Assembly: GCA_963766925.1 (NCBI GenBank) | Contig: CAVYCI010000003.1 | Span: 879-64,878, forward strand | Reading direction: 5' to 3' | From: an uncultured Alphaproteobacteria bacterium | GTDB taxonomy: Bacteria; Pseudomonadota; Alphaproteobacteria; Rhizobiales; Xanthobacteraceae | DNA: 64,000 nt | Shown: piece after piece, positions 10,763 to 39,809 of the stretch | Position numbering within the stretch: the first letter of the stretch is position 1 | How the letters are laid out: every line of letters begins with the position of its first letter | Made by a program: the position numbers and the translations under genes | The notes under the pieces: model-generated | What the model saw: the letters and a program-made list of their open reading frames with translations, nothing else | Databases searched by the model: none | Told to the model about the DNA's origin: nothing

Positions 10763-10791
10763 GGTCTGTTCCTTTCGAATAACGGTCCCGT

Positions 10792-13191: not shown

Positions 13192-13593
13192 ACAGTTGCC
13201 CTCACTGCGGGGCGGGTCTGTCCGCTTCCGGTCCTGAAAAAAAGATCGGGACTGCAGGAAGCCGCGGCAGCGTCAGCCAAAGAAGCCCCGGCGGCCTGAA
13301 GCTCGGTCGCGCCGGCCGGCCCCCAGTGTATGTCCACTCCCCGGACTCAGCCGTCGCCGGCATTGTGCATGTGGCCCGTTGCGGCAATTCGTTGCGACAC
13401 GCCAACCGACGCTGCGTTCCCGCCATGCCTGGAAATTCTTGAATTCGACGGTGCATTCGCCGGGCCGGATGCTCCGCAATCATGATCGGCACCCGCCATC
13501 GTGACGCGCTGGTTGCCGGTCCCGACGCGCGTCGAGGCTGGCAGCCGGAAACACGCAGTCATCAATAACTGAAAGTCAGGGAGATATCGGTCA

Positions 13594-14460: not shown

Positions 14461-14536
14461 GACGGGATGCCCCCTCGCCTGACCGGAAACAATCGACCAG
14501 GAAGCGTACATTGCGCAATATTGCAGGCCCCCGGGC

Positions 14537-14896
14537 ATGAAACGCGAACGGTCCCGTCAGCTTTGGCTCCGGGCGGCGCAATTTGCGTGGCCGGCCGGAG
14601 CGCTGCTGCTCGCGTTACCGGCGCCGGCCGTGGCGCAGGACATTCGCGGACTGGAATCCTGCTCTGCCGAGACACGGATGGAGCGTCGCACCGGATGCCT
14701 GCAGGCCAATGTTGAATTTCTTCATCAGGCTCTGATGAAGCTGGCGCGGGAGACGCAGGACCGGATGACGGCCGCCGATCGCGAGCTTGCCGTCGCCCGA
14801 GCCGAAATTGCCGCGCTGAAATCGGCGATGGAGAAGCTCCATGGCGAGCTCGCAAAAATGAAAGCGAAGGGCGAGCCCAACATCCCCGGCAAGTAG
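14537..14896 (+). CDS. Secreted coiled-coil protein (hypothetical)
   Basis: Signal-like LLLALPAPAVAQD followed by a heptad-like Ala/Glu/Lys-rich helix (RELAVARAEIAALKSAMEKLHGELAKMKAK). Confidence 0.5.
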   Translation: MKRERSRQLWLRAAQFAWPAGALLLALPAPAVAQDIRGLESCSAETRMERRTGCLQANVEFLHQALMKLARETQDRMTAADRELAVARAEIAALKSAMEKLHGELAKMKAKGEPNIPGK

Positions 14897-15205
14897 ACGG
14901 CGAAGAGCCGCCGCTGCGAATTGAGCGAATGCGATGCCGGACTGCGAACCACCGGAACCCGTCGTTCCGTTGCCTGCCGCAGGCGTCAACACCGCAGAAC
15001 AGCCGATTTTTGCCCGCGAAGGCGCAGGGCCTGACAGCCCGCCCTCCATTCACCGGCCCTCCTGGCCGGGCCGTGGGGCGGCGTCATGGCCACGCGGCCG
15101 CGGCGGACGGATTGACCCCGCGCCGTCCGCCGTGGGAGGGAAACCGGGGCCAAAATTCACTAAAGAATCCTTCCAGCGCGCCTGATCGGTTTGGGTCTTC
15201 GCCGA

Positions 15206-16579: not shown

Positions 16580-16589
16580 AGGGGCCGAG

Positions 16590-17663
16590 ATGCTTTTGCG
16601 GCGCGTGACGGCTTCAACGGACAACAGGCCATCCGGCTGGCGGAGCTTCGTCTTCCAGTTTCTCGGGATATCGATCGCGGTGGCCGGTTCGGCTTACCTT
16701 TTCATCCTGCTGATCGATCCGTTCGGCGTCGTACCGTTTTCATTACCCATCGAACGGCCGGTCATGGGTCACATCGAACGCTGGATGTACCCGCAGATCA
16801 TCCGCAGCAGGCGATTCGATTCCGTCGTTCTCGGAACCTCGACGTCCCGCCTGCTCGATCCCGAACAGCTCGACCGGTTATTCGGCGGACGCTTTGTCAA
16901 TCTCGGGATGGATCAGGCGAAGGCGTGGGAGCAGAAAAATGTCCTGGACCTTTTCCTGCGAGCGGCTGGTCCACCGAAAGTGCTGATCGTCGGCCTCGAC
17001 CCGGTCTGGTGCGACCAGGCGGCGGACCGCACTCGGGTCACCAATCGCGGGTTTCCGGAATGGCTGTACGATGACAGTCCGTGGAACGACTATTTCCATT
17101 TGCTCAACACCGGCACGCTTGAAATTGCCGGCCGCATCCTCGGCTATGCGCTGGGTCTTAAACAGGCAACAATTCGCGGCGACGGTTACGAAGTTTTCGT
17201 ACCCCCGGAAGCGGAATACGATGCGGTGCGCGCCCGTCAAAACATCGGACAGCGCCCGCCGCCGCCGGCCGCTCCGGCACCGGCGCTGTCGCCCGCGGAG
17301 CGCAGCCAACTATCCTTCCCCGCGCTGCCGTGGCTCGACGATCTGCTCGCGCGTATTCCTTCTTCGAGCCTGAAAATTCTGGCCTTCATGCCGGCTCACG
17401 TCGCCACGCAACCCGTTCCCGGCACCCGCGCCGCCTATATCGAGAATGAGTGCAAGGACCGGGTTGTCGCCATCGCCCGGATGCGCGGCGCCATGGTGAT
17501 CGACTGGCGCATCGACTCCCCGCTGACCCGCAACGACCTCAATTATTGGGACGGCGTGCACTATCGCGTCCCTGTCGCCACGCGTATCGCGGAGGAGCTT
17601 GCGGCAGCCACCCTCGGCAACAGCAGCGGTTTGGACGGCAGCTATGTGGTCCTGGTCCGGTAA
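16590..17663 (+). CDS. Membrane-anchored partner of the MBOAT, DltD/SGNH-like (putative extracytoplasmic O-acyl transfer component)
   Basis: It starts 10 nt after the MBOAT stop, with a GAAGGGG RBS. It has one N-terminal TM helix. VVLGTSTSRLL resembles a block I Gly-x-Ser motif and NYWDGVHY resembles a DxxH block V motif. The assignment rests on motifs only. Confidence 0.5.
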   Translation: MLLRRVTASTDNRPSGWRSFVFQFLGISIAVAGSAYLFILLIDPFGVVPFSLPIERPVMGHIERWMYPQIIRSRRFDSVVLGTSTSRLLDPEQLDRLFGGRFVNLGMDQAKAWEQKNVLDLFLRAAGPPKVLIVGLDPVWCDQAADRTRVTNRGFPEWLYDDSPWNDYFHLLNTGTLEIAGRILGYALGLKQATIRGDGYEVFVPPEAEYDAVRARQNIGQRPPPPAAPAPALSPAERSQLSFPALPWLDDLLARIPSSSLKILAFMPAHVATQPVPGTRAAYIENECKDRVVAIARMRGAMVIDWRIDSPLTRNDLNYWDGVHYRVPVATRIAEELAAATLGNSSGLDGSYVVLVR

Positions 17664-17936
17664 GCTCTGCGGAAGCAACTTCTCCATCGGTTCGCATGCC
17701 GGAATCAGGCACTCGACCGCCCTTTCCAGCGGATGCATCTGTAATAAAAATGCGCCGATCTGTCCGTGTCGGGTCCGTTTGCCGCGCCTCACCGTTTATC
17801 CGGAACAATAGTTCGATGAGACCGTTATCCCGCGAGTCCAGCAAATAGCGAATAACAGAAGAAGATCCGAAACTGCAAAGCGCAGTCAGCGGGTCGAAGA
17901 ATCCATTTTCGCAGAAATCTCAACCGGAGAATTCCC

Positions 17937-18023
17937 ATGGAATTGATCCTTATCATCGTCGTTCTGGTGCTGCTGTTTGGTGGCGGCGGCGGATATTTTG
18001 GGCGCAGGCGGGGGTATTGGTGA
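17937..18023 (+). CDS. 28-aa hydrophobic micro-protein (not in the ORF track)
   Basis: GGAGA lies 8 nt upstream of the ATG. Sequence is MELILIIVVLVLLFGGGGGYFGRRRGYW*. It is followed by a stem-loop and T-run at 18084-18121. Confidence 0.45.
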   Translation: MELILIIVVLVLLFGGGGGYFGRRRGYW

Positions 18024-18083
18024 AGCAATCACTCCACACAACTAAAAGCCAACGACAAGAATAAATCGGCACGAATGCAATTT

Positions 18084-18121
18084 GGCCTCGGACTGGCGCG
18101 TGCCAGCCGGGGCTTTTTGTT
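18084..18121 (+). terminator. Rho-independent terminator candidate
   Basis: GGCCTCGGACTGGCgcgtGCCAGCCGGGGC followed by TTTTTGTT. Confidence 0.5.
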
Positions 18122-18429
18122 ATCGCGGCGGGAACCGGGATTTGGGTGCCATTCGCCCATGAGGCAACCAGGTCAGTTGACGCGACTGACGGGCGTGCCG
18201 GCCTTCAGGTCAGTGACAGCCTAATGAAAGCTCAAAACGCTGATCGTGATGGAGCCGATAGCCTTGCCATTATCGGTTGCACCCGCCGTCATCGCGGCTG
18301 CACAGGCTGAATCGACTCGCGTCGCGAGTTCGCGATGAAGCCGACATGCGCCGCCGGGCTATCGGCCACACCTATGTGCCAGCCGTTGCGACCGCGTGAC
18401 CAGGCCGAATTACAAAACCTTGAAATTAT

Positions 18430-26121: not shown

Positions 26122-28459
26122 GTGACTAAATTCGGCATTGGCCAGCCCGTTGCGCGGCTGGAAGATCCCCGCTTCATCACCGGCCGCGGCCGCTACGTGG
26201 ACGACATCGATCTCCCGCGACAATGTCACGGTGTCGTGGTGATGTCGCCGCACGCGCACGCCCTCATCAAAAGCATCGACACTGCCAGGGCGAAGGCAGC
26301 CCCCGGCGTGCTGGCCGTACTGACCGGCGCCGACGTCGAGGCGGACGGGCTCGGCAGCCTCGTTCCGGTGATGCCGGAGGACATGGGCGGGCCGAAAGGC
26401 TTTCGCACCATGCGCCCGATCCTCAGCAGCAGGCGGGTGCGCGCGGTCGGCGACCGTGTCGCGTTCGTCGTCGCCGAAACGCTGGCGCAGGCACGCGACG
26501 CCGCCGAACTGGTCGAGGTCGAGTACGAGCAGCTTCCGTCCGTCATCGCCATGGAAGACGCCATCAAACCGGGCGCGCCGGCGGTCTGGGACGAGGCGCC
26601 GGACAATGTCGCCGTTACCCTGATGATGGGCAGCAAGGAAGCGACTGATGCTGCCTTCGCAAAGGCGAAGCACGTCGCCTCGGTCAGGCTGGTCAACAAC
26701 CGGGTCAACGCCAATTCGATCGAGCCGCGCGCCACGCTCGGCCAGTTTCATCCCGAGAACGACAGCTACACGCTCTACAGCACCACGCAGAACCCGCACG
26801 GCACCCGCGCGCATATCGCCCGGGACGTGCTGAAACTGCCCGAGGTCAGGGTGCGGGTAATCTCGCCGGACGTCGGCGGCGGCTTCGGCATGAAAGGCGC
26901 GGTTTATCCCGAGGACGCGCTGGTGCTTTGGGCCTCGCGGCGCTGCGGCGGACGTCCGGTCAAATGGGTGTCGACGCGCGCGGAGGCTTTCCTCGGCGAT
27001 TCTCACGGCCGCGACCAGGTCGTGACCGGCGAACTGGCGCTGGACGGAGGATGGCAAGATCCTCGGCCTGCGGGTCGACGCGCTGCACGGCATGGGCTCG
27101 CACGTATTCGATGCGTCGATGGTGGTGCCGCTGTTTGCGCTCAAGCTCGCGCCCGGCGTCTATCAGGTCCCGGCGGTGCACGCGGTCGGCCGCGCGGTGC
27201 TCACCAATACGCCCCCGCTGCAGCCCTATCGCGGCGCGGGACGGCCCGAAGCGACGTATCTGATCGAGCAGTTGCTCGACCGCGCCGCCCGCGTGATCGG
27301 CGTCGATCCGATCGAGATCCGGCGACGCAACTTCGTGCCGCCGTCCGCCATGCCGCACAAACTGCATTCCGGCATCGCCTTCGACAGCGGCGAGTTCATG
27401 CGCGTCATGGACGAATGCCTCAAGCTCGCCGACTGGGACGGCTTTCCGAAGCGTGCGGCGGAATCGAAAAAGCACGGCAAGCTGCGTGGCCGCGGCATCG
27501 GCTATTTCATCGAGGAAGCCGCGATATTCAACGACCGCATGGTGATCCGGTTCGATCCGAGCGGCACCCTGCAGATCCTCGCCGGCACGCATTCGCACGG
27601 CCAGGGCCATCAGACCGTCTACGCCCAGATGGTGCACGAATGGCTCGGCGTGCCGTTCGAGTCGATCGGCTTCGTCCAGGGCGACACCAACGAAGTGTCG
27701 ATCGGACGCGGCACCTACGGCTCGCGCAGCATGCATGTCGGCGGCAACGCGCTCAAACGCGCCGCCGACGCGATCATCGAGAAGGCGAAGCCGATGGCGG
27801 CGATGATGCTCGAGGCCGCCGTAGGCGATCTCGAGTTCAAGGACGGCAGCTTCCGCATCGTCGGCACCGACCGCGCGCTGCCGTTGACCGCAGTGGCGCA
27901 GTCGCTGCACCGGCCGATGTTTCTGCCGCCGCAGTTCGAAGTGGGTCTGGAAGCGTCGGGCACGTTCGCGGCCGAGCCGTCGAACTTTCCCAACGGCTGC
28001 CATCTCTGCGAGGTCGAGATCGATCCGGAAACCGGCGTCGTGACGCTGGCGCGTTACGCGGCGGTCGATGACGTCGGCAAGGTGATGAATCATCTGCTGT
28101 GCGAAGGGCAGATCCACGGCGGCGTGGCGCAGGGCGTGGGCCAGGCGCTGATGGAATCGATCGTGTTCGACGATGACGGCCAGCTCGTCACCGGCAGCTT
28201 CCAGGACTACGCGATGCCGCGCGCCGAGGATTTCCCCGATCTGCTGTCGGAACTGACCGAAGTGCCGGCCACCACCAATCCGCTCGGCGTCAAAGGCGCG
28301 GGCGAAGCCGGGGCGACCGGCGCGCCGCCGGCAGTGGTGGGCGCCATTCTCGACGCGCTGCGGCCGCTCGGCATCGAGCACATCGACATGCCGGCGACAC
28401 CAAACCGCGTCTGGCACGCGATTAACGATCGCGCCCCGGCAAAGATCGCGGCGGAATAA
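26122..28459 (+). pseudogene. Molybdopterin-binding large subunit of a xanthine dehydrogenase/CoxL-family hydroxylase, +1 frameshift at about 27046-27050
   Basis: The N-terminal frame reads GIGQPVARLEDPRFITGRGRYVDDI...ISPDVGGGFGMKG...ELALDG. The next frame continues (D)GKILGLRVDALHGMGSH...YRGAGRPEA... to a stop at 28459. 2338 nt = 3n+1. The context is GACGGAGGATGGC. Confidence 0.85.
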
Positions 28460-28476
28460 GGCAGCCGTCGCAGATA

Positions 28477-28504
28477 CGGCCTTCAAACAGCGGCCTTCAA
28501 ACAG
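28477..28504. repeat. Perfect tandem duplication of a 14-nt unit (cggccttcaaacag x2)
   Basis: Read directly at 28477-28490 and 28491-28504, just upstream of the terminator hairpin. Confidence 0.7.
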
Positions 28505-28506
28505 AA

Positions 28507-28548
28507 ACGGCCCGGATCGCCTCATGGCAATCCGGGCCGTTGTTTTTT
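28507..28548. terminator. Bidirectional rho-independent terminator between the convergent CoxL-like and permease genes
   Basis: Perfect 11-bp stem ACGGCCCGGAT / ATCCGGGCCGT with a 12-nt loop. It is followed by TGTTTTTT on the plus strand and TTTCTGTTTG on the minus strand. Confidence 0.65.
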
Positions 28549-28577
28549 CAGGACAGACTCGGGGCGTCGGCCCGGTG

Positions 28578-30176
28578 TCACTCCGCGGGTGTGGCGTCCG
28601 GTACACCCTCGTGCGGCGCGGTGGGGTCCCAGGCCGTAACGGGTGCGCGGCTCAGGGCAAACAGGAACGCGGCGACGATCAAGTAGGCAATCGCCACCAC
28701 CGGCGTGACCGCAAATCCGACGGCCTCGCCGTGCATGAACCCGAAGAACGTCAGGACCGCGCCGGCAGCAGCGAAGCCTGAAGCCTGTACGAACTTTTTG
28801 TCGATGACAAAGGCACCGATCGCACCCAGCACCAGCCCGGTGAGGATCGAGCCGCCGCCGAGCGTTTGCAGCCCGCCGTACAGCACGCCGAACCCGCCGA
28901 GCTTGGCAAAGCCGATGGCGACCGCAGAAGTCCCCGCGGCAGCCAGAGCGCCGTCCATCAGCGTTTTGCACCAGCCGGCGAGATGCGGCGCCAGCGAAAG
29001 CACGATGGCCGGCGCATGGGCCCTCGGCGTACTCTGGAACGCCTGCGCCCCGATCAGCATGCCGATGTACAGCAGGATCGGCGAAATCGCGACCACAGGT
29101 ACGATGGCCAGCAGCAGCGAGATCACCCCGAACCACGCCAGGATAATGACCATGATGCCCGTCGCAGCCGAGTAGCCGATACGGCCGCCCATCGCCTTCC
29201 AGCCGGGGTGACCGATATAGACCGCGTTGATGAACGGGTTGCCCATCAAACAGCCGATCAGGCTGACGACGCCGTCGGCGGTGAGCACGCGGGTGGTCGG
29301 ATAGGAGTCTCCGGCCGCTTCCGCGCTCTCCACGTTGTCCATCGCCTCGACCAGATCGTAGATGCCGAACGGGATCGCGGTGATGAGGATGACGCCCAGG
29401 AATTCGAACCCGCCGAAGACGTGATCGATGGCCGGGAGCGGCACCGAGAAGCCGAAATTGGAGAACGCATCGCCGATGCCCTTCACGGTCAACCCGCCGT
29501 AATTCAGGTCGAACAGGTTGGAGCCCCAGGCGATGATCATGCCGACGACGATGGCGACGAGGCCCGCCGGAATGCCTTTCGGATATTTAAATCCGCCGAA
29601 CCAGCTCACCATGATCACGGCGAAGCAGGTCAGGCCGATAACCGGCGTCATGTACATTTCGAGCGCCGGACGCATGGAGATGAAGGTGATCGACACGCCC
29701 GCGAGCGTGCCGAGCAGGGCGGCGCGCGGCGTGATCCGCCGCACAAACGGCGCGATGAAGCCGCCGATCATCAGGATGAAGCTCTGGAAGAACACCCAGG
29801 CAAGGCCCGCTTCCCAGCCCTTGATCGGATCGTTGGTCTTGAGCGTGATCGGCAGCATGATCACGAAGGTCACGATGAACATGTGCGGCACGCTGACGCC
29901 GGACGGCAGCGCGCAGACATCGTTGCGCCCGGTGGTCTTCGCCAGCCGGTAGGCGAGGTACGCATAGTAAAATGTCGAAAGGCACAGCATCAGGCCGAGA
30001 GCCGGCAAGATACGGCCGAACACGATCGCGTCCGGCATTTTGATCACAAACCGCAACAGGCCGGTGAGCACCAGCATGTTGACAAGGATATTGGTGCCGA
30101 AGCCGAAAAAGGCGTTCAGGTCACCAGCCATCCAAAGATGCGGACGATAGCTCGTCCCCGACGTCATGACCGTCAT
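28578..30176 (-). CDS. NCS2/AzgA-like nucleobase-type permease (xanthine/uracil/vitamin C permease superfamily)
   Basis: About 533 aa and 12+ TM helices. The N-terminus WMAGDLNAFFGFGTNILVNMLVL is typical of the long AzgA-like subgroup. ATG at 30176; the ORF track's 5' extension is Arg/Cys-rich noise. Confidence 0.65.
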   Translation of the reverse strand: MTVMTSGTSYRPHLWMAGDLNAFFGFGTNILVNMLVLTGLLRFVIKMPDAIVFGRILPALGLMLCLSTFYYAYLAYRLAKTTGRNDVCALPSGVSVPHMFIVTFVIMLPITLKTNDPIKGWEAGLAWVFFQSFILMIGGFIAPFVRRITPRAALLGTLAGVSITFISMRPALEMYMTPVIGLTCFAVIMVSWFGGFKYPKGIPAGLVAIVVGMIIAWGSNLFDLNYGGLTVKGIGDAFSNFGFSVPLPAIDHVFGGFEFLGVILITAIPFGIYDLVEAMDNVESAEAAGDSYPTTRVLTADGVVSLIGCLMGNPFINAVYIGHPGWKAMGGRIGYSAATGIMVIILAWFGVISLLLAIVPVVAISPILLYIGMLIGAQAFQSTPRAHAPAIVLSLAPHLAGWCKTLMDGALAAAGTSAVAIGFAKLGGFGVLYGGLQTLGGGSILTGLVLGAIGAFVIDKKFVQASGFAAAGAVLTFFGFMHGEAVGFAVTPVVAIAYLIVAAFLFALSRAPVTAWDPTAPHEGVPDATPAE

Positions 30177-30202
30177 TGCACGCTCCTGTTCATGCCGAGT
30201 TT

Positions 30203-30222
30203 CATTGCTGCGCGCAGCAATG
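30203..30222. promoter_or_regulatory. 20-bp perfect palindrome 27 nt upstream of the permease start (operator or 5'-UTR hairpin)
   Basis: CATTGCTGCGCGCAGCAATG, read directly. Confidence 0.3.
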
Positions 30223-30517
30223 CTCACAGCCCTGTCGTCCGCCCGCCTGTTTGACGGGCAGTGATTGGCGAGTTGAGACCCCCGCCCCCCTGGCGGGAAA
30301 CAAGCGCAACCAACGCCGGTTGCGACATCGGCGTCGCAAGCCCCATGCCAAAAAGCGGCGATCAACAACAAACCGGCCGGACGATGGCGAAGGCAATGAA
30401 TCGCCTGTGGAATCAGATAACCGTCAAATAGCTTTCGGACCGTTGTTGCAGTGCGGCAAGCCTGCAAAGCGGGACTGGCAGGCGCAGGTGAGACCAAATA
30501 ACAGTCATGATGCTGTC

Positions 30518-30598
30518 AAAAAAAACAGCACCGCCGGCCGGGCGGAGGGGGCAGCCGGAGCAGAAACGCGTCCGCACATTCTGAAACAGCGGTGCTCC
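30518..30598 (-). terminator. Long hairpin plus T8 tract downstream of the isochorismatase-family gene
   Basis: The minus strand has GCACCGC...GCGGTGC outer pairing enclosing a GC-rich inner stem, followed by TGTTTTTTTT (A-run at 30518-30525 on the plus strand). Confidence 0.4.
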
Positions 30599-30607
30599 GG
30601 GCCTTGA

Positions 30608-31285
30608 TCAGGCCAGTGCCGCCAGCGAATCAAGCAGCGGCGCCGAGGCCGCGACGGATCCGAAAATGCCGCCCTGCGCCTTGATCATGGCGAGGCCGGC
30701 CGCGTGGAAGTCCGGGAAATAGGACGCACAGCAGTCCGACAGCACAATGCAGCGGAAGCCGCGATCGTTCGCTTCGCGCACGGTGGTATTGACGCAGACC
30801 TCCGTGGTCACGCCGCAGACGAACAGGGTATCGATGCCGTGGTTATGCAGCATCAATTCCAGATCGGTCTGATAGAACGCGCCCTTGCCGGGCTTGTCGA
30901 TAACCGGCTCATCCTTCAGCGGATAAAGCTCCGGAATGATGTCGTGACCGGGCTCGCCGCGTACCAGAATACGGCCCATGGGGCCGGGCGCGCCAATCCG
31001 GGTGGCCGGGTCGCCGCGCACCACCTTGTGCGGCGGCGCATCGGACAGATCGGGACGGTGACCTTCTCGGGTGTGAATGACCAGCATGCCGATGCGGCGC
31101 GCGGCGGCGAGGATATCGCGGCACGGCGCGACCGCCGCCTGGAGGCGTGACACGTCGTTGCCCAAAGCTTCGCCAAAACCGCCCGGCTCGAGGAAATCAC
31201 GCTGCATGTCGATGATAACCAGCGCGCTCCGGTCCACATCGACTGAAAGCGGCGCCGGTTCGGCCTCGAAAGTCACGCTTCGCAT
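30608..31285 (-). CDS. Isochorismatase-family cysteine hydrolase (RutB/BiuH/N-carbamoylsarcosine amidase-like)
   Basis: SALVIIDMQRDFLEPGGF (Asp), KPGKGAFYQTDL (Lys), VCGVTTEVCVNTTVREA (Cys nucleophile). ATG at 31285; the ORF track extends to 31357. Confidence 0.8.
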   Translation of the reverse strand: MRSVTFEAEPAPLSVDVDRSALVIIDMQRDFLEPGGFGEALGNDVSRLQAAVAPCRDILAAARRIGMLVIHTREGHRPDLSDAPPHKVVRGDPATRIGAPGPMGRILVRGEPGHDIIPELYPLKDEPVIDKPGKGAFYQTDLELMLHNHGIDTLFVCGVTTEVCVNTTVREANDRGFRCIVLSDCCASYFPDFHAAGLAMIKAQGGIFGSVAASAPLLDSLAALA

Positions 31286-31585
31286 CTCGGTCCCCCGCCT
31301 GGTACTGAAAGACATTTGGCGACTTGCAAGATGAGGGCCAGCACGTCCCCCCGCCAAAATCGTGCTTCAGCCGCGCTGCTTAATTCTTGAGCCTGGCCCG
31401 CGACAACGCAACAGGCCCCGCTCCAGATCGCAGTCGGCTCCGTCCCGACCGGTTGTTTGCACAGGACCGATCCGTTCAAAACTGCTAGGTGAAAGTCGGC
31501 GCCGCCGGCAGGACCGTTCTGCGGGGGCGCCCCGGCAGGCCCGTTCCGGCCCGCCGGGACATTTTGGTTCACCCGACACCACCGC

Positions 31586-31858
31586 ATGACCCGAAAAACC
31601 GCCCGCAAACGTCATAAACCTTCCCCGCCCAAAACCGCCGCCCGCCGGAGGGCCGGCAAGCCGGCCGCGGGCCACAAACCCGCCGATCCCGTCGCAACAC
31701 TCGCCGAGGCAAGCGCCACGGCGCTGGGGCTTTCGATCGATCCCGCCTGGCGCGCCGGCGTGGTACGCAATCTGCACCTGATCCTCGCACACGCGGCCGT
31801 CGTCGAGCGGACGCCGCTGCCCGACGATATCGAACAGGCGCCGGTGTTCCGTGCTTGA
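31586..31858 (+). CDS. AtzG-like small subunit (DUF4089-type) with a basic N-terminal extension
   Basis: The C-terminal 55 aa, VATLAEASATALGLSIDPAWRAGVVRNLHLILAHAAVVERTPLPDDIEQAPVFRA, match the AtzG-like pattern. It overlaps the amidase start by 8 nt. Confidence 0.6.
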   Translation: MTRKTARKRHKPSPPKTAARRRAGKPAAGHKPADPVATLAEASATALGLSIDPAWRAGVVRNLHLILAHAAVVERTPLPDDIEQAPVFRA

Positions 31859-33257
31859 GGCCGCCGGCCGCGATCTTGCCTGGGGCACCGCGGACGAGAT
31901 TGCGACCGCGGTCGCAACCGGACGCGCCAGCGCGCACGGCGTCGTCGAGGCAGCGCTGCTCCGCGTCCAGTCGCGCGATCCCCTGCTGAATTCGTTTACC
32001 GCCGTCACCGAGCAGCGCGCGCTCGCCCGCGCGCGGGCACTTGACGAAGCGCTCGCCAGGGGCGAGCGGCAGGGGCCGCTGGCGGGGGTGCCGTTCGCGG
32101 TCAAGAACCTGTTCGACATTGCCGGTTTGACGACACTCGCAGGCTCGAAAATCAATCGCGACGATCCGCCGGCGAAGCGGGACGCAGCGCTGATCCGCCG
32201 GCTCGAGGCGTCAGGCGCCATCCTGATCGGCGCGCTCAATATGGGCGAATACGCCTACGACTTCACCGGCGAGAACGTCCACGACGGCCCGTCGCGCAAT
32301 CCGCACGATCTCAAACGCATGAGCGGCGGCTCCTCCGGCGGTTCGGCCGCGGCTGTCGCCGGCGGCCTCGTGCCGCTCGCGCTCGCATCCGACACCAACG
32401 GTTCGATCCGGGTGCCGGCCTCGCTGTGCGGCCTGTTCGGCCTCAAGCCGACCTACGGACGCCTGAGCTGCGCCGGCGCCTTTCCGTTCGTCACAAGCCT
32501 CGATCACGTCGGTCCGATGGCGCGCAGCGCACGCGATCTCGCGCTCGCTTTCGACGCGATGCAGGGCGGCGATCCCGACGATCCGGTGTGCGTTGACCGG
32601 CCGCCCGAGCCGGTCACTCCCTTACTCGACCGCGGCGTCGACGGGCTGCGCATCGCGGTTGCCGGCGGCTATTTCAGGGGCCGCGCGGCGGAGCCGGTCC
32701 AGGCCATCGACCGCATCGCGGCGGCGCTCGGCGCAAATCGCGACATCGAGATACCGCATGCGGAACGCGCGCGGTCGGCGGCCTTCATCATCACCGCAAG
32801 CGAAGGCGCGAGCCTGCATCTCGAGCGCCTGCGGACCCGCGCCGGGGATTTCGATCCCGCCGTGCGTGACCGGCTGATCGCAGGCGCCATGGTGCCTGGC
32901 TCGCTGGTGACGCGGGCGCAGCGTTTCCGCCGCTGGTATCGCAGCGAGGTGCTGAAGCTGTTCACCGAAGTCGACGCCATCCTCGCGCCGGCGACGCCCT
33001 GCACCGCGCCGCTTGTCGGGCAGCAGACTTTCATGTTCGGCGACGACGAGCTGGCGGTGCGGCCCAATCTCGGTCTTTACACGCAGCCGATTTCCTTCAT
33101 CGGCCTGCCGGTGGTCGCCGTGCCGGTACCGCTCTCGCCGCTGCCGATCGCGGTGCAGGTGATCGCAGCACCCTGGCGCGAGGACGTGGCGTTGCGCATC
33201 GCGCATGCGCTGGAGACGGCAGGCGTCGCCACCGCGATGCGCCCGGCGGAATTTTAA
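31851..33257 (+). CDS. AtzE-family amidase (amidase signature enzyme, 1-carboxybiuret hydrolase-like)
   Basis: GVPFAVKNLFDIAG (catalytic Lys), GGSSGGSAAAVA, and DTNGSIRVPASLCGLFGLKPTYG. The Asn in DTNGS is characteristic of AtzE-like members rather than generic GSDTGGS amidases. Confidence 0.8.
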   Translation: MLEAAGRDLAWGTADEIATAVATGRASAHGVVEAALLRVQSRDPLLNSFTAVTEQRALARARALDEALARGERQGPLAGVPFAVKNLFDIAGLTTLAGSKINRDDPPAKRDAALIRRLEASGAILIGALNMGEYAYDFTGENVHDGPSRNPHDLKRMSGGSSGGSAAAVAGGLVPLALASDTNGSIRVPASLCGLFGLKPTYGRLSCAGAFPFVTSLDHVGPMARSARDLALAFDAMQGGDPDDPVCVDRPPEPVTPLLDRGVDGLRIAVAGGYFRGRAAEPVQAIDRIAAALGANRDIEIPHAERARSAAFIITASEGASLHLERLRTRAGDFDPAVRDRLIAGAMVPGSLVTRAQRFRRWYRSEVLKLFTEVDAILAPATPCTAPLVGQQTFMFGDDELAVRPNLGLYTQPISFIGLPVVAVPVPLSPLPIAVQVIAAPWREDVALRIAHALETAGVATAMRPAEF

Positions 33258-33316
33258 TACACCGGACGCGCCGGGTGACTTCCGGACACAGGCTTCGCGC
33301 ATGACCCGCGGAAATC

Positions 33317-34525
33317 TCAGGCGGTCAGGCGGACCGGCAGCGTCCGGACGAAGTCGCCGTGGGGCTGTCCGTCGCGCACAACGTCACCGATGACCTCGAT
33401 GCGTGCGAACCGCTCGATCAGGAGGCGCAAAGTTTCCTCAAGCTCGACCAGCGCGACCGGCCGGCCCAGGCACAGGTGACGCCCCGAACCAAAATTGAGG
33501 ATCGGCCGCGGCCGCTCGCGCGTGATGCGAAATTCGTCCGGCGCATCGAACACCGCTGGATCGTGGTTACCGGCGATGACCGAAGCGAACAGCCACGTGC
33601 CCCTGGTCACGGAAACCCCGGCGAATTCGTGATCCTCGCGCGCAATCCTCGGATCCGACCAGTTGTTCGGGCGCGTGCGCGCGCATTCCTGCACGGCGTC
33701 GGCCACCAGCGCGGGATTTTTGCGAAGGAAATCCCATTGGTCCGGATGGTCCGCGAACGCCATGACCGCATGCGAAAGGCTCGCATTGGTGTTGTCGGTG
33801 CTCGCCGCCAGTATCGTGAAAAGGATCTCGACGATCTCGTCGGTTGTCGTTTCGCCGCGCTGTTCCGCCGCGATCAGCTGAGACAGCGCATCCTCGCCAG
33901 GATCGCTGCGCTTTCGCTCGATGTGTCGCCGGATGTAATCGATCAGGGTGCGCGTGCCGGTTTCGATCTCCTCGCGATAGGCGGGATCGGCGCGAAACGC
34001 CTTGAGCATGCTGTCGGAACACGCCGCCACCAGCGTACGATCGCTCATCGGCGCCCCGATCAGGTAGCAGAAGAAGGCTGAAGGCACGTGCGGCGCGATA
34101 TCGCGGGCGAAGTCAAATTCATTGTCCCGGACGTCGTCGAGCAATTGTTCGACGATCTGTCGCGCGACCTTTCGCGCCCGCTCAATCGCCGCCGGGCTGA
34201 AAAGCGGCGCCAGCAAACGGCGCTGCCGGCGATGCTCTTCGCCCTCCAGCGCCGCCGTGTTGCGTGCAAAGAAGTGATACGCCTCACTGTCCTGGGCGAG
34301 TCCGGTCATGGTAAGCAGTTCTTCAAACCCGACAGGAAATCGTTCGTCGCGCAACAATTCCCACGACAGGTCGTAACTGAGACATTCCAGTCCGCGCGGG
34401 CTTCGCGCCAGCGCATGGCCTTTGCCAAGCGCCCGTATTGCCGCCAATGGGTCCTTCGCGTATTCGGGCGAGAAGACGTTCAGGAACGGCAGCGATTCGT
34501 AGTCAGGCTTCCCCAAAGTGGTCAC
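33317..34525 (-). CDS. Cytochrome P450
   Basis: Heme-binding loop FGSGRHLCLGRPVA, I-helix ILAASTDNT, ExxR (ECARTR). GTG 34525 follows GGGGGAG; the ORF track extends to TTG 34546. Confidence 0.85.
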   Translation of the reverse strand: MTTLGKPDYESLPFLNVFSPEYAKDPLAAIRALGKGHALARSPRGLECLSYDLSWELLRDERFPVGFEELLTMTGLAQDSEAYHFFARNTAALEGEEHRRQRRLLAPLFSPAAIERARKVARQIVEQLLDDVRDNEFDFARDIAPHVPSAFFCYLIGAPMSDRTLVAACSDSMLKAFRADPAYREEIETGTRTLIDYIRRHIERKRSDPGEDALSQLIAAEQRGETTTDEIVEILFTILAASTDNTNASLSHAVMAFADHPDQWDFLRKNPALVADAVQECARTRPNNWSDPRIAREDHEFAGVSVTRGTWLFASVIAGNHDPAVFDAPDEFRITRERPRPILNFGSGRHLCLGRPVALVELEETLRLLIERFARIEVIGDVVRDGQPHGDFVRTLPVRLTA

Positions 34526-34606
34526 GACACTCCCCCATCTCAGCAATCAAAGCCTGTCGCAGAATGCGGCAAACCAGACGCAATTCAGACCATGTCTATG
34601 TTCATC

Positions 34607-34619
34607 AGAGTTAGACTCT
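34607..34619. promoter_or_regulatory. Candidate TetR operator palindrome in the P450/TetR divergent intergenic region
   Basis: AGAGTtagACTCT at 34607-34619. A second palindrome, AGACcatGTCT, lies at 34587-34597. Confidence 0.3.
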
Positions 34620-34654
34620 ATCGAAATGAGTGAAGGTCTTCAAGAGGCTGTTTG

Positions 34655-35314
34655 ATGCCGAAAGTTTCCCGAATGACCCGCAGGGACGAGTACGCTCAGG
34701 CAACGCGGCAGGCGATTTTGGACGCCGCCCGCAGCCTGTTCGCCGAGCGCGGCTATTTCGCCACCAAAGTCGATGACATCGCGGACCGGGCCAGGGTGGC
34801 ACCTGCCACCGTCTATGCCGTGACCGGAGGCAAATACGGCCTGCTTACCGAGCTGATCCGGATATGGACGACAGACCCCATTGTCGAGGCGACGACCATC
34901 CAGATCGGCGCGATGTCCGACCCGGTCGCCATCATCCGGGAACTCGCCGCCGCAAGCCGGCGCATGCGGGAGCAGTATGAGGACATCATGCGGGTCGTGC
35001 TCGCCACGGCGCCGCACGACCCGGCGGTCGCCGCCGCGCTTCAAACCGCGACCCAGGTCTATCGCAAAGCCTTCATTCCGTTCGCCGAGCGGCTGCTGAA
35101 GCTCGGCGCGATGCGGCAAGGCATCGACGTTGCCGCGGCCGTCGATCTGTTCTGGTTCTATTTCGGCTACACGTCATATTTCACGCTGCACGACGACAAT
35201 GGCTGGTCGTACGAACGGGCGGAGAACTGGCTGGCCGAACAGGCCGGCCGCGAACTTCTGTCCAGTCCTGCCGGCACGCGAAGAGCACCGGGTCGAAAGA
35301 AAAAATCGCAATAG
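34655..35314 (+). CDS. TetR/AcrR-family transcriptional regulator
   Basis: N-terminal HTH ATRQAILDAARSLFAERGYFATKVDDIADRARVAPATVYAVTGGKYGLL. Confidence 0.85.
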   Translation: MPKVSRMTRRDEYAQATRQAILDAARSLFAERGYFATKVDDIADRARVAPATVYAVTGGKYGLLTELIRIWTTDPIVEATTIQIGAMSDPVAIIRELAAASRRMREQYEDIMRVVLATAPHDPAVAAALQTATQVYRKAFIPFAERLLKLGAMRQGIDVAAAVDLFWFYFGYTSYFTLHDDNGWSYERAENWLAEQAGRELLSSPAGTRRAPGRKKKSQ

Positions 35315-35364
35315 ACCCCGATCGGCCTGGAGAGCGTTTCAACATCTGTTCAGGAGAAAGAAAA

Positions 35365-35751
35365 ATGGAAATCGACCTGCCGGAGGTCGTCGCCGAAGTG
35401 CGTGCCGCATTCGACCGTTACGAGAAGGCGCTGGGCGACAACGACGTCGCCACGCTCAATGCGATATTTCACAAGGACCCGCGCACCATCCGCTACGGTG
35501 GCGGCGAGAATCTCTATGGCCATGCGGAGATCGAGGCGTTCCGGGTCGCGCGCTCTCCGGCCGGACTCGCGCGCACCATTTCGCGAACCGTGATCAGCAC
35601 CTATGGCCGCGACCACGCCGTCGCCTCGACGCTGTTTCACCGCGCCAGCATGCCTGGCAAAGTCGGCCGTCAGATGCAGACCTGGGTGCGCTTCCGCGAA
35701 GGCTGGCGCGTGGTCGCCGCGCACGTTAGTTTCATCGACGAACCGAAATGA
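35365..35751 (+). CDS. AtzH-like / HpxZ-like NTF2-fold protein (DUF3225-type)
   Basis: VRAAFDRYEKALGDNDVATLNAIFHKDPRTIRYGGGENLYGHAEIEAFR...GRQMQTWVRFREGWRVVAAHVS matches the AtzH-like pattern. Confidence 0.65.
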   Translation: MEIDLPEVVAEVRAAFDRYEKALGDNDVATLNAIFHKDPRTIRYGGGENLYGHAEIEAFRVARSPAGLARTISRTVISTYGRDHAVASTLFHRASMPGKVGRQMQTWVRFREGWRVVAAHVSFIDEPK

Positions 35752-35770
35752 CCGGGAGCTAAAAACCGGA

Positions 35771-37573
35771 TCACGCCGGTGCGGTTTCCTGCGCCATGAA
35801 AGCGCGCCAGCCGCCGAAGCTGGAAATATCGCGTGCGTCCGCCACCGCTTCGGCTTCGACCAAAAAGCCTTTGACGGGGTGGCCGGCCTCCAGTTCGAGC
35901 GTTCCGATCGAAAGCGGCGGCGGGATCGCGGCGACGAAACGGCCGAACGCCGCTTCCGGCATCGCCCAGACTTCCACCTCGATCGCGGCGCCGGCGCCGT
36001 TCCCGACGCGCAGCAGCCCCGGCTTCGGCGGGCGGGTACCGGCGAGCGCGAACAGCCGGTAGTGCGGCGCGGTCGCGGCGCGCGCGAGCAGCCGCGCGCC
36101 GGCTGCGCGCAGTTCGCCGTTGAGCGGCATGCCGGAGAGATGCGCGCCGACCACAGCAAGCGGCACTTCGCCCTCCGCGGCCGCCGCCGACGGCGGTGCC
36201 AGTTTCGGCTGCGGATAGTTGAGCGCGCCCAGCGGGAGGCCGGTCGCGGCATGGAACTCACGGCCGATGGCCGCGAGCAACAGATCCTTGCCGGCCGGCG
36301 CCAGCAGCGTGACACCGAACGGGGTGCCATCGGCATGCATGCTGGCGGGAACCGCAAGCCCGCACATGTCGAGCAGATTGACGAAGTTCGTGTAGGTGCC
36401 GAGCCGGCTGTTGAGCCCGATCGGATCGGCCAGCACCTGCTCCACGGTGTACGTGGTCGGCGTCGTCGGCAGCAGCATGGCCTCGATGCCGCGGAAGGTG
36501 TGATCGCGCACCCGCCGCAATTCCTCGAGCTGATAGAATGCCGCAAAGGCGTCGGCGCTGGTCCCGTGCGCTCCGGCGAGAAGGATCTGGCGTGTGACCG
36601 GATGCAGCGATTCCGGCGAGGAGGCGATCAGCGCACGGACCGTGAGGTAGCGTTCCGCCACCCAGGGGCCTTCGTACAGCAGACGCGCCGCCGCATAGAA
36701 CGGCTCGATATCAAATTCGACGATCTTGACGCCGAGCCCGGCAAATTGCGCGATTGCCGCTTCATAGGCCGCTGCCGACACGCGATCGCCGAAGAAGAGC
36801 CGCTGCCCCGGCAGCGGCACGCCGAGCCGCAGACCTGCCGGCATCGGACCCGGGGCGGAGACGGGCCGGGCACGCGAATAGGGATCGGCCGGATCGGCGC
36901 CGGCAATTACGCCCAGCATCGTCACCGCATCGTCGACGGTAAACGCCATGACGGAAACGCAGTCGAGCGTGCGGCATGCCGGCACCACGCCGGCATTCGA
37001 GACCAGTCCGCGGCTCGGCTTGAGCCCGACGATGTTGCTGAAAGCGGCCGGCACGCGGCCCGACCCGGCGGTGTCGGTGCCGAGCGCGAGCGGCGCGATC
37101 CCTGCACCCACCGAAAGCGCCGATCCGGTGCTGGAGCCCCCCGGAATGAGCTTCGGATCGAACAGATTGCGGCCGATGCCGTACGGCGTGCGGACACCGA
37201 CGAGCCCGGTCGCGAACTGATCGAGATTGGTCTTGCCGAGAATCAGCGCACCCGCGGCGCGCAGCCGCGCGACCGCTGTCGCATCGTGGCCGGGGCGATA
37301 GCTGTAGGCCGGACAGGCGGCGGTGGTCGGCAGGCCCTCGACGTCGATGTTGTCCTTGACGACGACCGGTATGCCGAACAGCGGAAGCGCGGTTTGACCG
37401 GCCGCCATGAGCGCCCGCGCCTCGGCCAGCACCTCGGCCTCGTCGCGGAGCGCGATGAAAATCGCCGGATCGTCGTGGGCCCGGATTCGGGCATAGCTTC
37501 GCCTGACGATATCCTCAGGCGTGGCCGCGCCGGTGCGAAAGGCGTTGAGAATTTCGGCGACCGTCTCGGTCAC
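35771..37573 (-). CDS. atzF: Allophanate hydrolase (AtzF-like)
   Basis: 600 aa. Amidase signature domain (GIPVVVKDNIDV, GGSSTGSALSVG, GTDTAGSGRVPAAF) plus the roughly 120-aa C-terminal allophanate hydrolase domain (...EVWAMPEAAFGRFVAAIPPPLSIGTLEL). Confidence 0.85.
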   Translation of the reverse strand: MTETVAEILNAFRTGAATPEDIVRRSYARIRAHDDPAIFIALRDEAEVLAEARALMAAGQTALPLFGIPVVVKDNIDVEGLPTTAACPAYSYRPGHDATAVARLRAAGALILGKTNLDQFATGLVGVRTPYGIGRNLFDPKLIPGGSSTGSALSVGAGIAPLALGTDTAGSGRVPAAFSNIVGLKPSRGLVSNAGVVPACRTLDCVSVMAFTVDDAVTMLGVIAGADPADPYSRARPVSAPGPMPAGLRLGVPLPGQRLFFGDRVSAAAYEAAIAQFAGLGVKIVEFDIEPFYAAARLLYEGPWVAERYLTVRALIASSPESLHPVTRQILLAGAHGTSADAFAAFYQLEELRRVRDHTFRGIEAMLLPTTPTTYTVEQVLADPIGLNSRLGTYTNFVNLLDMCGLAVPASMHADGTPFGVTLLAPAGKDLLLAAIGREFHAATGLPLGALNYPQPKLAPPSAAAAEGEVPLAVVGAHLSGMPLNGELRAAGARLLARAATAPHYRLFALAGTRPPKPGLLRVGNGAGAAIEVEVWAMPEAAFGRFVAAIPPPLSIGTLELEAGHPVKGFLVEAEAVADARDISSFGGWRAFMAQETAPA

Positions 37574-37764
37574 TTAAAGCTCCGTTTGGCCGCGGGAACC
37601 GCCTGCCCGGTTCCTTTTGGGCCAAAACCCGCCCGTTTCGCAAGTCGCCAGGCCGGTTGCACCCAGGGGGTCATCCGCCTATATTCCATGCGCTTTCCAG
37701 TCATCGCTGATGACTTCAGTGGCTTCGTCCGCAAGGGCGGGCGAAGCACAAAGGAGATTTGCAC

Positions 37765-38455
37765 ATGGCTATCGCGCCCTTGATGCCGAAGGCGACCGCG
37801 GTGTGGCTGGTGGAGAACACCGCGCTTTCGTTCGAGCAAATCGCACAGTTTTGCAACCTGCACGTGCTCGAGGTGAAAGCGATTGCCGACGGCGACGCGG
37901 CGCAGGGCATCAAAGGGCTCGATCCGGTTCTCACCGGGCAACTGACCCGCGAAGAGATCTCCGAAGCCGAGGGCAATCCTGAATACCGGCTGCACATCGC
38001 CGACCCGAAGGTCCGCCTGCCGGAAGCGACCCACAAGAAGGGCCCGCGCTACACGCCGGTATCGCGCCGCCAGGATCGTCCCAACGCGATCCTCTGGCTG
38101 GTGCGCAACCATCCGGAGCTCAAGGACAGCCAGATCATGCGGCTGGTCGGCACGACCAAATCCACCATTCAGGCGATCCGCGACCGCACGCACTGGAATT
38201 CGGCGAACCTGACCCCGCTCGACCCGGTGACGCTCGGTCTGTGCTCGCAGATCGACCTCGATCTGGAAGTTCAGCGCGCCGCCAAGGAGAAGCCGGTTCC
38301 AGTCGAAGTCGCAGGGCGCCACGCTGCTTCCGGCTTCCGTCACCACCGCGCCGAAAGACGAGCCGGAAGAGCCGGTCGCCGCCAAAAAGACCGCGGACCT
38401 CAACGTCGAGGCGGTGTTCGCGAAGCTCAAGCAGCTTGGCGGCAAGAGCGAATAG
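37765..38455 (+). pseudogene. trcR: DUF1013 / TrcR-like cell-cycle transcriptional regulator with a +1 frameshift near 38297-38300
   Basis: MAIAPLMPKATAVWLVENTALSFEQIAQFCNLHVLEVKAIADG... runs to ...QRAAKEKPV. The next frame gives QSKSQGATLLPASVTTAPKDEPEEPVAAKKTADLNVEAVFAKLKQLGGKSE*. 691 nt = 3n+1. The context is CCGGTTCCAG. Confidence 0.75.
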
Positions 38456-38551
38456 TTCAACGAGCAGTCCAACCCATAGTACGGCAGGAAGATTGCTGGC
38501 GCGCGAAATGCCCGCGGGCGGGACACTGTCCGGTTTTTGTTTGTCCGGCTT

Positions 38552-39809
38552 TTATTTCTGCCGGGCGTCGGCGTACGGATAGATCATATCGCCGGTCTTG
38601 TATTGCTGCGGCCATACCACCGGCTGGACCTTGCCGTCGGCGAACTGCCCGACATCGTTCGGCGCCACGTTCTGGAATTGCGTGAACACCGTGCGGCTCT
38701 TCGGTCCATTCGCCGTCCTTGCCGTACGCGATCTCGCCGACGACGGTCGAGAATTTGTGGCTGTGAATGTATTCGGCGAGCTTGTCGCTGATCGAGGCTC
38801 TGCGTTCCCTCCACGGCCTGCGCCAGCACCTGGCCGGCGGCGTAGCCGAACGGCACGAAACGCATAGCCCAGCGGATCGATCTTTTCGCCAGCAGCAGCG
38901 GCGCGATAACGCTTGAGCAGATCGGCCACGCCGGGGAAATTGAACGTCGGCGCCTCCACGAAGCTTTCCATGATGACGAGGCCGTCGAGCATCGGCCCGA
39001 GCTGCGTCTTTGATCGGCGTGATCAGCAGACCGATCATCGTGCCGCCGAACATTTTCGGCGTCAGCCCGATTTCGTTCGCCGCACGCACGATGCCGACCG
39101 TGTCGGGCGGATAGGCGGCGACGAAGACGATGTCCGGATTGGCCGCCTGAATGGCGCGCACCGTCGGCGCGAAATCGGTGGTCGGCGGCGGATAGCTCTG
39201 GTCGTAGACGATTTTGAAACCGGCGGCGGTTGCATTTTCCCGCGCGCCGTCCGCCGAAGTCCGGGCGAATTCCGCATCGGCCGACAGGAAAGCGACCGTC
39301 TGCGGCTTCGGGCTCTGCGCGGCGGCGAGATCGAAAAAGCCCTTCGAGAACGCCCGCACACCGTCGGGCCCGAGCGGCTGCATCGAAAAGTATTTTGAAT
39401 AATTGAAATGCCGGTTGATGCTGACCGCGAGGATCCCGATCGTGACTTTGTTGTTTTGAATGATCACCGGCATCGCGGCAGCCGCCATGTTGGTGGCGTA
39501 CGGACCGAGCAGCAGATCGACTTTGTCGACGCTGATCAGCTTGGTGTAGATGCCCGGCACGTTCGAGGGGTTGCTCTGGTCATCGTAATAGACCAGCTCC
39601 ACCGGCCTGCCGAGCAGGCCGCCCTTGGCGTTGACGTCGTCGCGCCAGAGGTTGATCGCGAGCAGAAGCTGTTTGCCGTTCTGCGCCACGCTGCCGGTCA
39701 ACGCCATGCTGAAACCGACCTTGATGGGGTCGGCGGCGAACGCCGGAGCACCCAGGGCCGACAGCAACATCAGGGCAGCAGACAGTCCGGCGCGCCAGAC
39801 GGAAAGCAT
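38552..39809 (-). pseudogene. Liv-type ABC substrate-binding protein broken by four separate +1 frameshifts
   Basis: The signal peptide and the first ~265 aa are intact (ADPIKVGFSMALTGSVAQNGK...). The frame changes at 39009-39011 (AAA), 38858-38860 (TTT), ~38800-38808 and 38712-38713. Every segment still reads as PBP sequence (...MLDGLVIMESFVEAPTFNFPG / FVPFGYAAGQVLAQAVEG / DKLAEYIHSHKFSTVVGEIAYGKDGEW / KSRTVFTQFQNVAPNDVGQFADGK...). 1258 nt = 3n+4. Confidence 0.8.

Follow-up and report, generated by a model that had tools for sequence, protein, structure and literature searches.

Linkage of a TrtA-type cysteine hydrolase gene to atzGEHF suggests a triuret nitrogen-scavenging cluster in an uncultured Xanthobacteraceae bacterium

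The window, as we call the whole 64,000-nucleotide (nt) stretch of DNA analyzed here (contig CAVYCI010000003.1, or C3, of assembly GCA_963766925.1, starting 878 nt into that contig), harbors a gene for an isochorismatase-family cysteine hydrolase of the TrtA type, trtA, which diverges from atzG in a module of atzG-, atzE-, atzH- and atzF-like genes and is followed on its own strand by a permease gene. We consider it likely that this locus is a nitrogen-scavenging cluster for triuret (carbonyldiurea), in which TrtA is joined to AtzG, AtzE, AtzH and AtzF. The linkage between trtA and atzGEHF is recurrent among related genomes and not accidental. The component enzymes are known and the pathway is a recombination of two published ones, hence the finding is a refinement at the level of annotation and pathway, not a new kind of biology. 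The source assembly comprises 4.45 Mb in 31 contigs and is 81% complete, and homologues place it near soil metagenome-assembled genomes (MAGs) of the Xanthobacteraceae.

In the proposed route triuret would be imported by the permease, which belongs to an unclassified family, and TrtA would cleave a terminal amide of it to give 1-carboxybiuret and NH3. AtzE, together with its small partner AtzG, would then convert 1-carboxybiuret into 1,3-dicarboxyurea ahead of the spontaneous decay of the former to biuret, the AtzH-like protein would turn 1,3-dicarboxyurea into allophanate and CO2, and AtzF would hydrolyze allophanate to two NH3 and two CO2. The net yield would be four NH3 per triuret, obtained without BiuH or TrtB, with trtA and the permease gene each under a promoter of the sigma-54 (nitrogen-control) type. 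We infer the substrates, the transport function and the order of these steps, the order being that of the characterized TrtA of Herbaspirillum and of AtzEG, AtzH and AtzF of Pseudomonas sp. ADP. What the analysis itself shows is the family of every enzyme, the residue signature of TrtA, the recurring synteny, the conserved promoter motif and the predicted fold of the permease.

TrtA hydrolyzes triuret to 1-carboxybiuret, and the work that describes it, in which the triuret pathway runs through TrtA, TrtB, BiuH and AtzF, itself remarks that AtzEG exists to hydrolyze the TrtA product (PMC7948467). In the cyanuric acid pathway the same unstable compound is produced by AtzD, and is processed by AtzEG to 1,3-dicarboxyurea and by AtzH to allophanate, from which AtzF releases the last two ammonia molecules (PMC6219798). 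Since the product of TrtA is the substrate of AtzEG, the entry step, which the initial annotation of this DNA had supposed to be undescribed, would be that of a known enzyme, published in 2020 (PMC7948467). Since, in turn, AtzEG, AtzH and AtzF continue from the product of TrtA, the window would encode a second complete route, one in which TrtB and BiuH are dispensable.

We found no published description of trtA joined to atzGEH, of the permease family or of sigma-54 control. To our knowledge, the one through TrtB and BiuH is the only published bacterial triuret route. TrtB itself was reportedly discovered by Aukema et al. in 2020. Triuret is an impurity of urea fertilizer that reaches fields in very large amounts, and it also arises on uric acid oxidation.

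Clusters of atzG, atzE and atzH that lack atzD have previously been reported to be common (Esquirol et al. 2018, PMC6219798). If the proposed route is correct, its independence from BiuH would explain why such clusters are so frequent where no cyanuric acid hydrolase is encoded, a question posed in 2018, and it would point to a natural, pre-herbicide role for enzymes that were later recruited to atrazine degradation. It would also provide the first candidate triuret importer, from a family of membrane proteins without an assigned function.

The cysteine hydrolase

Protein typing was performed with curated hidden Markov models (HMMs) from Pfam, NCBIfam and TIGRFAM at their respective cut-offs, on an open reading frame (ORF) map that reproduced all the ORFs of the initial annotation at their coordinates (Table 1), the divergence of the hydrolase gene from atzG included. 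The product of trtA, 225 amino acids (aa) long when counted from the ATG at 31285, belongs to the isochorismatase fold family, with 166 bits against Pfam PF00857. On the BiuH equivalog model NF050097 it obtains 275 bits, below the cut-off of 370, while the BiuH paralogue of the same genome, encoded on contig C1, lies above it with 426 bits. Its best match among solved structures is TrtA from Herbaspirillum sp. BH-1 (6XIX/6XJE, 263 bits), followed by BiuH 6AZO (245 bits).

The residues of TrtA that bind triuret were listed by Tassoulas et al. 2020 (PMC7948467), and the same work gives six consensus discriminators between TrtA and BiuH, namely F35, N41, A134, E160, Y187 and I205. All 13 of the TrtA residues compared (D24, F29, F35, N41, E72, K129, K132, A134, E160, C162, Y187, Q202 and I205) are kept in the window protein, with the Asp-Lys-Cys triad D24, K129 and C162 at the aligned positions. 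At the six discriminators the C1 paralogue and the BiuHs of the PDB show Tyr, Tyr, Ser, Asp, Thr and Val, the sole exception being the generalist RhdBiuH (6XJM), with an Ala at the third. The exact TrtA pattern is found in 83 of the 84 TrtA-like sequences, window protein and reference counted, and in a maximum-likelihood (ML) tree the window protein shares a clade with 6XIX (support 90/94), separate from every BiuH.

Judged by these residues and by the tree, the divergent cysteine hydrolase is predicted to be a triuret hydrolase of the TrtA type. Its identification as a BiuH or as a RutB is ruled out by the HMM cut-offs and the signature residues. The initial annotation had proposed that something other than cyanurate feeds the module and had named triuret among the candidates, a proposal with which the local TrtA-type hydrolase agrees well; its further suggestion that carboxybiuret-type and biuret-type hydrolases coexist in the cluster has to be dropped, as the score of the local enzyme is short of the BiuH cut-off and the real BiuH is on C1.

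TrtA-signature cysteine hydrolases are also carried by 78 Escherichia coli plasmids, mostly from poultry, where the gene stands in an operon with those for DUF2877, FdrA and DUF1116 proteins (AllH/F/G, oxamate carbamoyltransferase), carbamate kinase, a cytosine-type permease and a LysR regulator. This operon links the TrtA-type enzyme to an oxalurate-type, ATP-yielding catabolism of ureides in a habitat rich in uric acid.

The AtzG, AtzE, AtzH and AtzF proteins

AtzE exceeds the cut-offs of both models that define its family (NF006631, 724 bits for a cut-off of 461; TIGR02715, 690 for 426), matches AtzE of Pseudomonas sp. ADP (6C62) with 494 bits, and shows the amidase motifs AVKNLFD, GGSSGGS and DTNGSIR, the last within ASDTNGSIR, which together make up the Ser-cisSer-Lys signature. 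It is thus an AtzE-family amidase, with 1-carboxybiuret hydrolase as the predicted activity. Immediately upstream, and overlapping it by the 8 nt that the initial annotation had reported along with the DTNGS signature, lies the gene for the GatC-like small partner. This AtzG-like protein gives 59.8 bits on PF13318 (cut-off 24) and only a weak similarity to AtzG of Pseudomonas ADP (6C62_C, E = 0.32), its conserved core corresponding to residues 42-88. Some 40 residues rich in Lys, Arg and Pro (window 31586-31708) precede this core, and represent either a translated N-terminus or a mis-called start.

The AtzH-like protein scores 190.6 bits on PF11533 (cut-off 27), 190 on the HpxZ model NF033625 (cut-off 135) and 142 against AtzH 6BJT. 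In a gap-free alignment its Y19, R43 and R70 correspond to Tyr22, Arg46 and Arg73 of 6BJT, a register confirmed by the structure of the R73K variant, 6D63. We predict from this that it is a member of the NTF2-fold AtzH/TrtB/HpxZ family that acts as a decarboxylating amidohydrolase on 1,3-dicarboxyurea. The likely TrtB-type structure 2OWP has these catalytic Tyr and Arg residues as well, so that they do not separate AtzH, TrtB and HpxZ from each other. The convergent AtzF, of 600 aa, is well above the cut-offs for allophanate hydrolases (NF006043, 844 bits for 487; TIGR02713, 784 for 511), has the AH_C domain (PF21986, 164 bits) and constitutes the only over-cut-off match to allophanate hydrolase in the 81%-complete genome.

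AtzE, the AtzG-like and AtzH-like proteins and the allophanate hydrolase pass the family models, and the local hydrolase falls short of that for BiuH. The convergent arrangement of atzH and atzF about 2 kb further on was likewise recovered. A search of the whole genome for the AtzD/TrzD/barbiturase family gave a single match, an AtzD equivalog on contig C23, and none on the window contig, so the initial statement that no AtzD accompanies the AtzG/E/H/F module is upheld, for the window and the cluster, while AtzD is not absent from the genome. An atzD immediately outside the window in the same cluster is ruled out, the only gene of that family being located 23 kb into C23.

Recurrence of the linkage in other genomes

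Two collections were used to evaluate how far the linkage extends: a set of 82 related loci, made up of 80 from a scan with one genome per species plus 2 plasmid loci, and an order-wide sample of 201 genomes spread evenly across the order of the host. AtzE and AtzH, usually with AtzF, are encoded no more than 10 kb from trtA in about 36 of the 82 loci, and these span Xanthobacteraceae, Bosea, Chelatococcus, Microvirga, Methylobacteriaceae, Chenggangzhangella and a Steroidobacteraceae MAG. As for other genes near trtA, 8 of the loci have BiuH, 4 have AtzD and 2 have allFGH.

The order-wide sample leads to the same picture from the side of atzE. An AtzE-family gene above the cut-off is present in 44 of the 201 genomes, and 20 of these 44 have a TrtA/BiuH-family gene within approximately 1 kb of atzE; the adjacent genes that were retrieved, from 12 of those 20 genomes, carry the TrtA signature in every case (12/12). 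Only 7 of the 44 have AtzD at a distance of up to 5 kb from atzE, and all seven correspond to a larger supercluster in which trtA still adjoins atzG-atzE. The order of the supercluster is BMP-type importer, biuH, atzD, ATPase, trtA, atzG, atzE, a gene resembling 5-formyltetrahydrofolate (5-formyl-THF) cyclo-ligase, atzH, gntR and atzF. Clusters without AtzE display the published layout, i.e. importer, biuH, trtA, an AtzH-like gene (presumably encoding TrtB) and atzF.

The 5-formyltetrahydrofolate cyclo-ligase family gene, of about 267 aa, that separates atzE from atzH in superclusters of other Hyphomicrobiales holds the same position in five loci (Table 1).

Promoter elements and terminators

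A -24/-12 element of the sigma-54 type, TGGCCCTCATCTTGCA, with one mismatch to TGGCAC-N5-TTGCW, precedes the ATG at 31285 by approximately 40 nt, which favors this codon as the most likely start of trtA. The motif is conserved, since 56 of the 82 loci have an equivalent element (at most one mismatch, GG/GC retained) no more than 260 nt before trtA, compared with a background rate of 0.01 per 270 nt. The 430-nt spacer that separates trtA from the permease gene (30177-30607) contains a second element, TGGCATGGGGCTTGCG. A spacer of about 400 nt is common to 13 close relatives, and 12 of them show a sigma-54-like element 129-198 nt before the permease gene.

No sigma-70 promoters emerged from the consensus scan, which also detected the terminator-like signal after trtA listed in Table 1. 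Rfam gave no credible match in the spacer or in the rest of positions 28400-38000, and the idea of a riboswitch or another known RNA there was discarded.

The permease

The permease gene is located downstream of trtA, on the same strand and within 2.5 kb, in 62 of the 82 loci, and in 35 of those 62 the gap between both genes is below 150 nt. This near-constant pairing makes the permease the best candidate for the importer, and we infer from it a possible role in the uptake of triuret. By sequence the protein matches no Pfam model, the NCS2 model Xan_ur_permease included, even at E = 10, and it matches no PDB entry by phmmer or by profile. The automatic naming of the Joint Genome Institute (JGI) assigns its homologues to the 'AGZA family' (adenine/guanine/hypoxanthine permease).

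An AlphaFold model with a predicted local distance difference test (pLDDT) value of 91 and a predicted template modelling (TM) score, pTM, of 0.86 displays a 7+7 inverted repeat that, like UraA, has two short strands (residues 93-95 and 318-320). Foldseek relates this model to UraA, SVCT1, AZG1, SLC26Dg and BicA, with TM scores of about 0.5-0.6 and identities of 11-17%. According to the model, the permease would adopt the 7+7 elevator-type fold of UraA, NAT and SLC26 proteins, yet form a family of its own. The NCS2-like permease and CoxL-like gene of the initial annotation are where it had placed them, while membership in NCS2 does not stand, the resemblance being confined to the predicted fold and the JGI name.

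Alternative explanations

Several observations weigh against the triuret reading and have to be considered together. The window TrtA is 59% identical to the characterized TrtA, compared with 53-56% to BiuHs, and the characterized protein (6XIX) sits on a long branch of the ML tree; the window enzyme is accordingly a member of a sister subclade. Genes of the TrtA type adjoin oxalurate genes (allFGH and carbamate kinase) on the avian plasmids of E. coli and also in one Burkholderiales MAG, and another ureide is therefore a possible substrate for the subclade of the window. TrtB, which is a carboxybiuret decarboxylase, belongs with AtzH and HpxZ to one family of homologues, a membership that for TrtB is suggested by a legend in the supplement of PMC12625717. 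As the catalytic residues do not discriminate among them, the AtzH assignment draws on synteny and on a poorly resolved tree. Co-transcription of atzE and atzH is lost in this genome because an insertion carrying a cytochrome P450 gene and a TetR regulator gene separates them. Finally, the assembly contains several frameshifts.

The question of substrate is where the enzymes themselves could tell a different story. The TrtA-like protein and a trio resembling AtzGEH and HpxXYZ could act on an oxalurate-type compound, or on some other product of urate oxidation, taken up by a carrier resembling purine permeases. The HpxXYZ proteins of Klebsiella are homologues of AtzGEH, the AtzH-like protein passes the NCBI equivalog model for HpxZ, of oxalurate catabolism, the JGI label of the permease points in the same direction, and the TrtA-type proteins of the plasmid operons with allFGH and carbamate kinase are 67% identical to that of the window. 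We nevertheless find this quite unlikely, given that the window protein shares all the substrate-contacting and second-shell residues of the ultraspecific triuret enzyme. Moreover, most loci that contain AtzE also have in their cluster an allophanate hydrolase, for which an oxalurate route has no use, the only one found in this genome sits in the cluster, and the window contig has no gene for HpxW or gamma-glutamyltransferase (GGT), whose family finds matches only on contigs C9 and C14. A broader version of the idea, unlikely in our judgment, is that the permease-linked TrtA subclade and the UraA-fold carrier serve a natural ureide not recognized to date, e.g. an oxaluramide-like product of urate oxidation, instead of fertilizer triuret, AtzGEH/AtzF in certain lineages and AllFGH/carbamate kinase in others then being alternative downstream branches of a widespread and as yet undescribed purine-salvage side pathway under sigma-54 control.

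If triuret is the substrate, the steps after TrtA could still be those of the published route (PMC7948467, PMC12625717). The AtzH-like protein would in that case act as TrtB and produce biuret, the BiuH encoded on C1 would yield allophanate for the local AtzF, and AtzEG would be devoted to another amide. Such an arrangement gains from the family relationship just mentioned, from the presence of a true BiuH in the genome and from the fact that atzH adjoins atzF here, not atzE. However, in a tree of 128 columns the AtzH-like protein belongs to a 100/95 clade whose members are all linked to AtzE where the context is readable, whereas proteins from clusters without AtzE, TrtB-like by context, fall in other clades, with deep nodes poorly supported. 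In relatives some 35 nt separate atzE from the start of atzH (in locus L021, 35 nt counted from the atzE stop), and atzG-atzE is the immediate divergent neighbor of trtA, all of which renders the decarboxylation of carboxybiuret by the AtzH-like protein a decidedly unlikely alternative. The remaining candidate source of 1-carboxybiuret is cyanurate, opened by the AtzD of C23 and finished by the local AtzGEHF, with the cysteine hydrolase as an incidental neighbor. The AtzD equivalog does exist in the genome, its product is likewise 1-carboxybiuret, and superclusters of atzD, trtA and atzGEH are known in other Hyphomicrobiales, but this AtzD is encoded on another contig, frameshifted, in a cluster with its own transporter and amidase, and across the order sample the neighbor of atzE is trtA in 20 of 44 genomes versus atzD in 7 of 44. 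We regard an AtzGEHF module that serves cyanurate, with no part for TrtA, as highly improbable. A contribution from C23 is nonetheless compatible with the triuret reading, because TrtA and AtzD feed the same intermediate. As the only copy found in the genome, atzF probably serves all three feeder routes.

Comparison with known systems

The closest characterized counterpart is the triuret pathway of Herbaspirillum, which shares with the window the complete TrtA signature (13/13), AtzF as the end enzyme, 1-carboxybiuret as an intermediate and a role in nitrogen scavenging. Both differ in what follows TrtA, as the window uses AtzG, AtzE and AtzH and would deaminate first, whereas Herbaspirillum uses TrtB and BiuH and decarboxylates first. 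They differ in the carrier as well, a single unclassified permease of UraA fold in the window and a BMP-type ATP-binding cassette (ABC) importer in Herbaspirillum, and in regulation, the window having no GntR regulator and showing sigma-54 promoters at trtA and the permease gene. The two TrtA proteins represent the sister subclades described above.

With the atzDGEHF genes of Pseudomonas sp. ADP (PMC6219798) the window has in common orthologue-level matches for AtzG, AtzE, AtzH and AtzF, the overlap of atzG with atzE, and the predicted chemistry from 1-carboxybiuret on. Unlike them, its cluster has no atzD, TrtA taking its place as the source of 1-carboxybiuret, its atzF is convergent rather than co-directional, and atzE is parted from atzH by the P450/TetR insertion. 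The atzG-atzE-atzH clusters that lack atzD and the HpxWXYZ system of Klebsiella present the same set of three gene families outside a cyanurate context; the window differs in having neither a gamma-glutamyltransferase/HpxW gene nor allantoate genes nearby, and in possessing an allophanate hydrolase and TrtA. As for the permease, the predicted 7+7 fold would be shared with NCS2/NAT and AzgA permeases (UraA, UapA, AZG1) and with SLC26/SulP proteins, whereas no membership in the NCS2 or AzgA families is detectable in its sequence.

Neighboring genes and the rest of the genome

The positions of all the features are collected in Table 1.

Table 1. Features of the cluster, its surroundings and related loci; positions refer to the window unless another contig or locus is named.
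Feature	Position	Strand	Remarks
CoxL-like molybdopterin subunit	26122-28459	+	+1 frameshift near 27047
Terminator-like hairpin, strong, 16 pairs	28506-28541	-	after the permease gene
Permease, ~530 aa	28578-30176	-	upstream side of the trtA-atz module; downstream of trtA in transcription
Second sigma-54-like element TGGCATGGGGCTTGCG	30335-30350	-	~160 nt upstream of permease start; two mismatches
Terminator-like hairpin with T-run	30531-30545	-	after trtA; consensus scan only
trtA, isochorismatase-family ORF	30608-31357 (full ORF); 30608-31285 (from likely ATG)	-	diverges from atzG
Sigma-54 type -24/-12 element TGGCCCTCATCTTGCA	31325-31340	-	~40 nt upstream of trtA ATG 31285
atzG-like	31586-31858	+	8-nt overlap with atzE
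atzE	31851-33257	+	8-nt overlap with atzG
Cytochrome P450	33317-34546	-	Pfam p450
TetR regulator	34652-35314	+	Pfam TetR_N
atzH-like	35365-35751	+	2.1 kb past atzE; convergent with atzF
atzF, allophanate hydrolase, 600 aa	35771-37573	-	convergent with atzH-like
AtzD equivalog (cyanuric acid hydrolase)	C23:23071-24142		read in two frames
Cyclo-ligase family gene	locus L109 11614-12417		same position in L107, L112, L113 and L116
Plasmid TrtA-type/allFGH operon	E. coli pACN001-B, NC_023327.1 (locus L101) 10001-18179

The P450-TetR pair forms a 2.1-kb insertion between atzE and atzH that is private to this genome. The 80 loci of the one-genome-per-species scan, where atzH comes straight after atzE, yielded no homologue of the pair, and a check for mobile elements revealed no notable direct or inverted repeats at its flanks. 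The pair is probably outside the pathway. On the other side of the permease gene, and convergent with it, the CoxL-like gene matches MoCoBD_1/2 and Ald_Xan_dh_C in two pieces, which are split by an extra G near 27047. It encodes a lone large subunit, and only the closest relatives have it beside the cluster; the orphan is probably unrelated to the cluster, and the link to a Mo-hydroxylase made in the initial annotation is correspondingly weak.

Concerning the frameshifts, the genes that are read in at least two frames are the CoxL-like gene, a gene for a Liv-type binding protein (38457-39809) and AtzD on C23. Sets of long-read soil MAGs are the source of many of the close relatives, so that indels introduced by assembly are no less likely than genuine pseudogenes.

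The true BiuH of the genome is encoded on C1 inside an operon for an ABC importer of the bmpA-nupABC type. On C23, the first three quarters of AtzD obtain 331 bits on NF052395, a further piece corresponding to the C-terminus. In the segment C23:17600-24142 (L011 4600-11152) this AtzD is accompanied by an ABC importer of the NMT1/SsuA type, an amidase that is not an AtzE and an amidohydrolase resembling 8-oxoguanine deaminase (679 bits for a cut-off of 532). This cluster could be a separate feeder module for triazines or oxidized purines.

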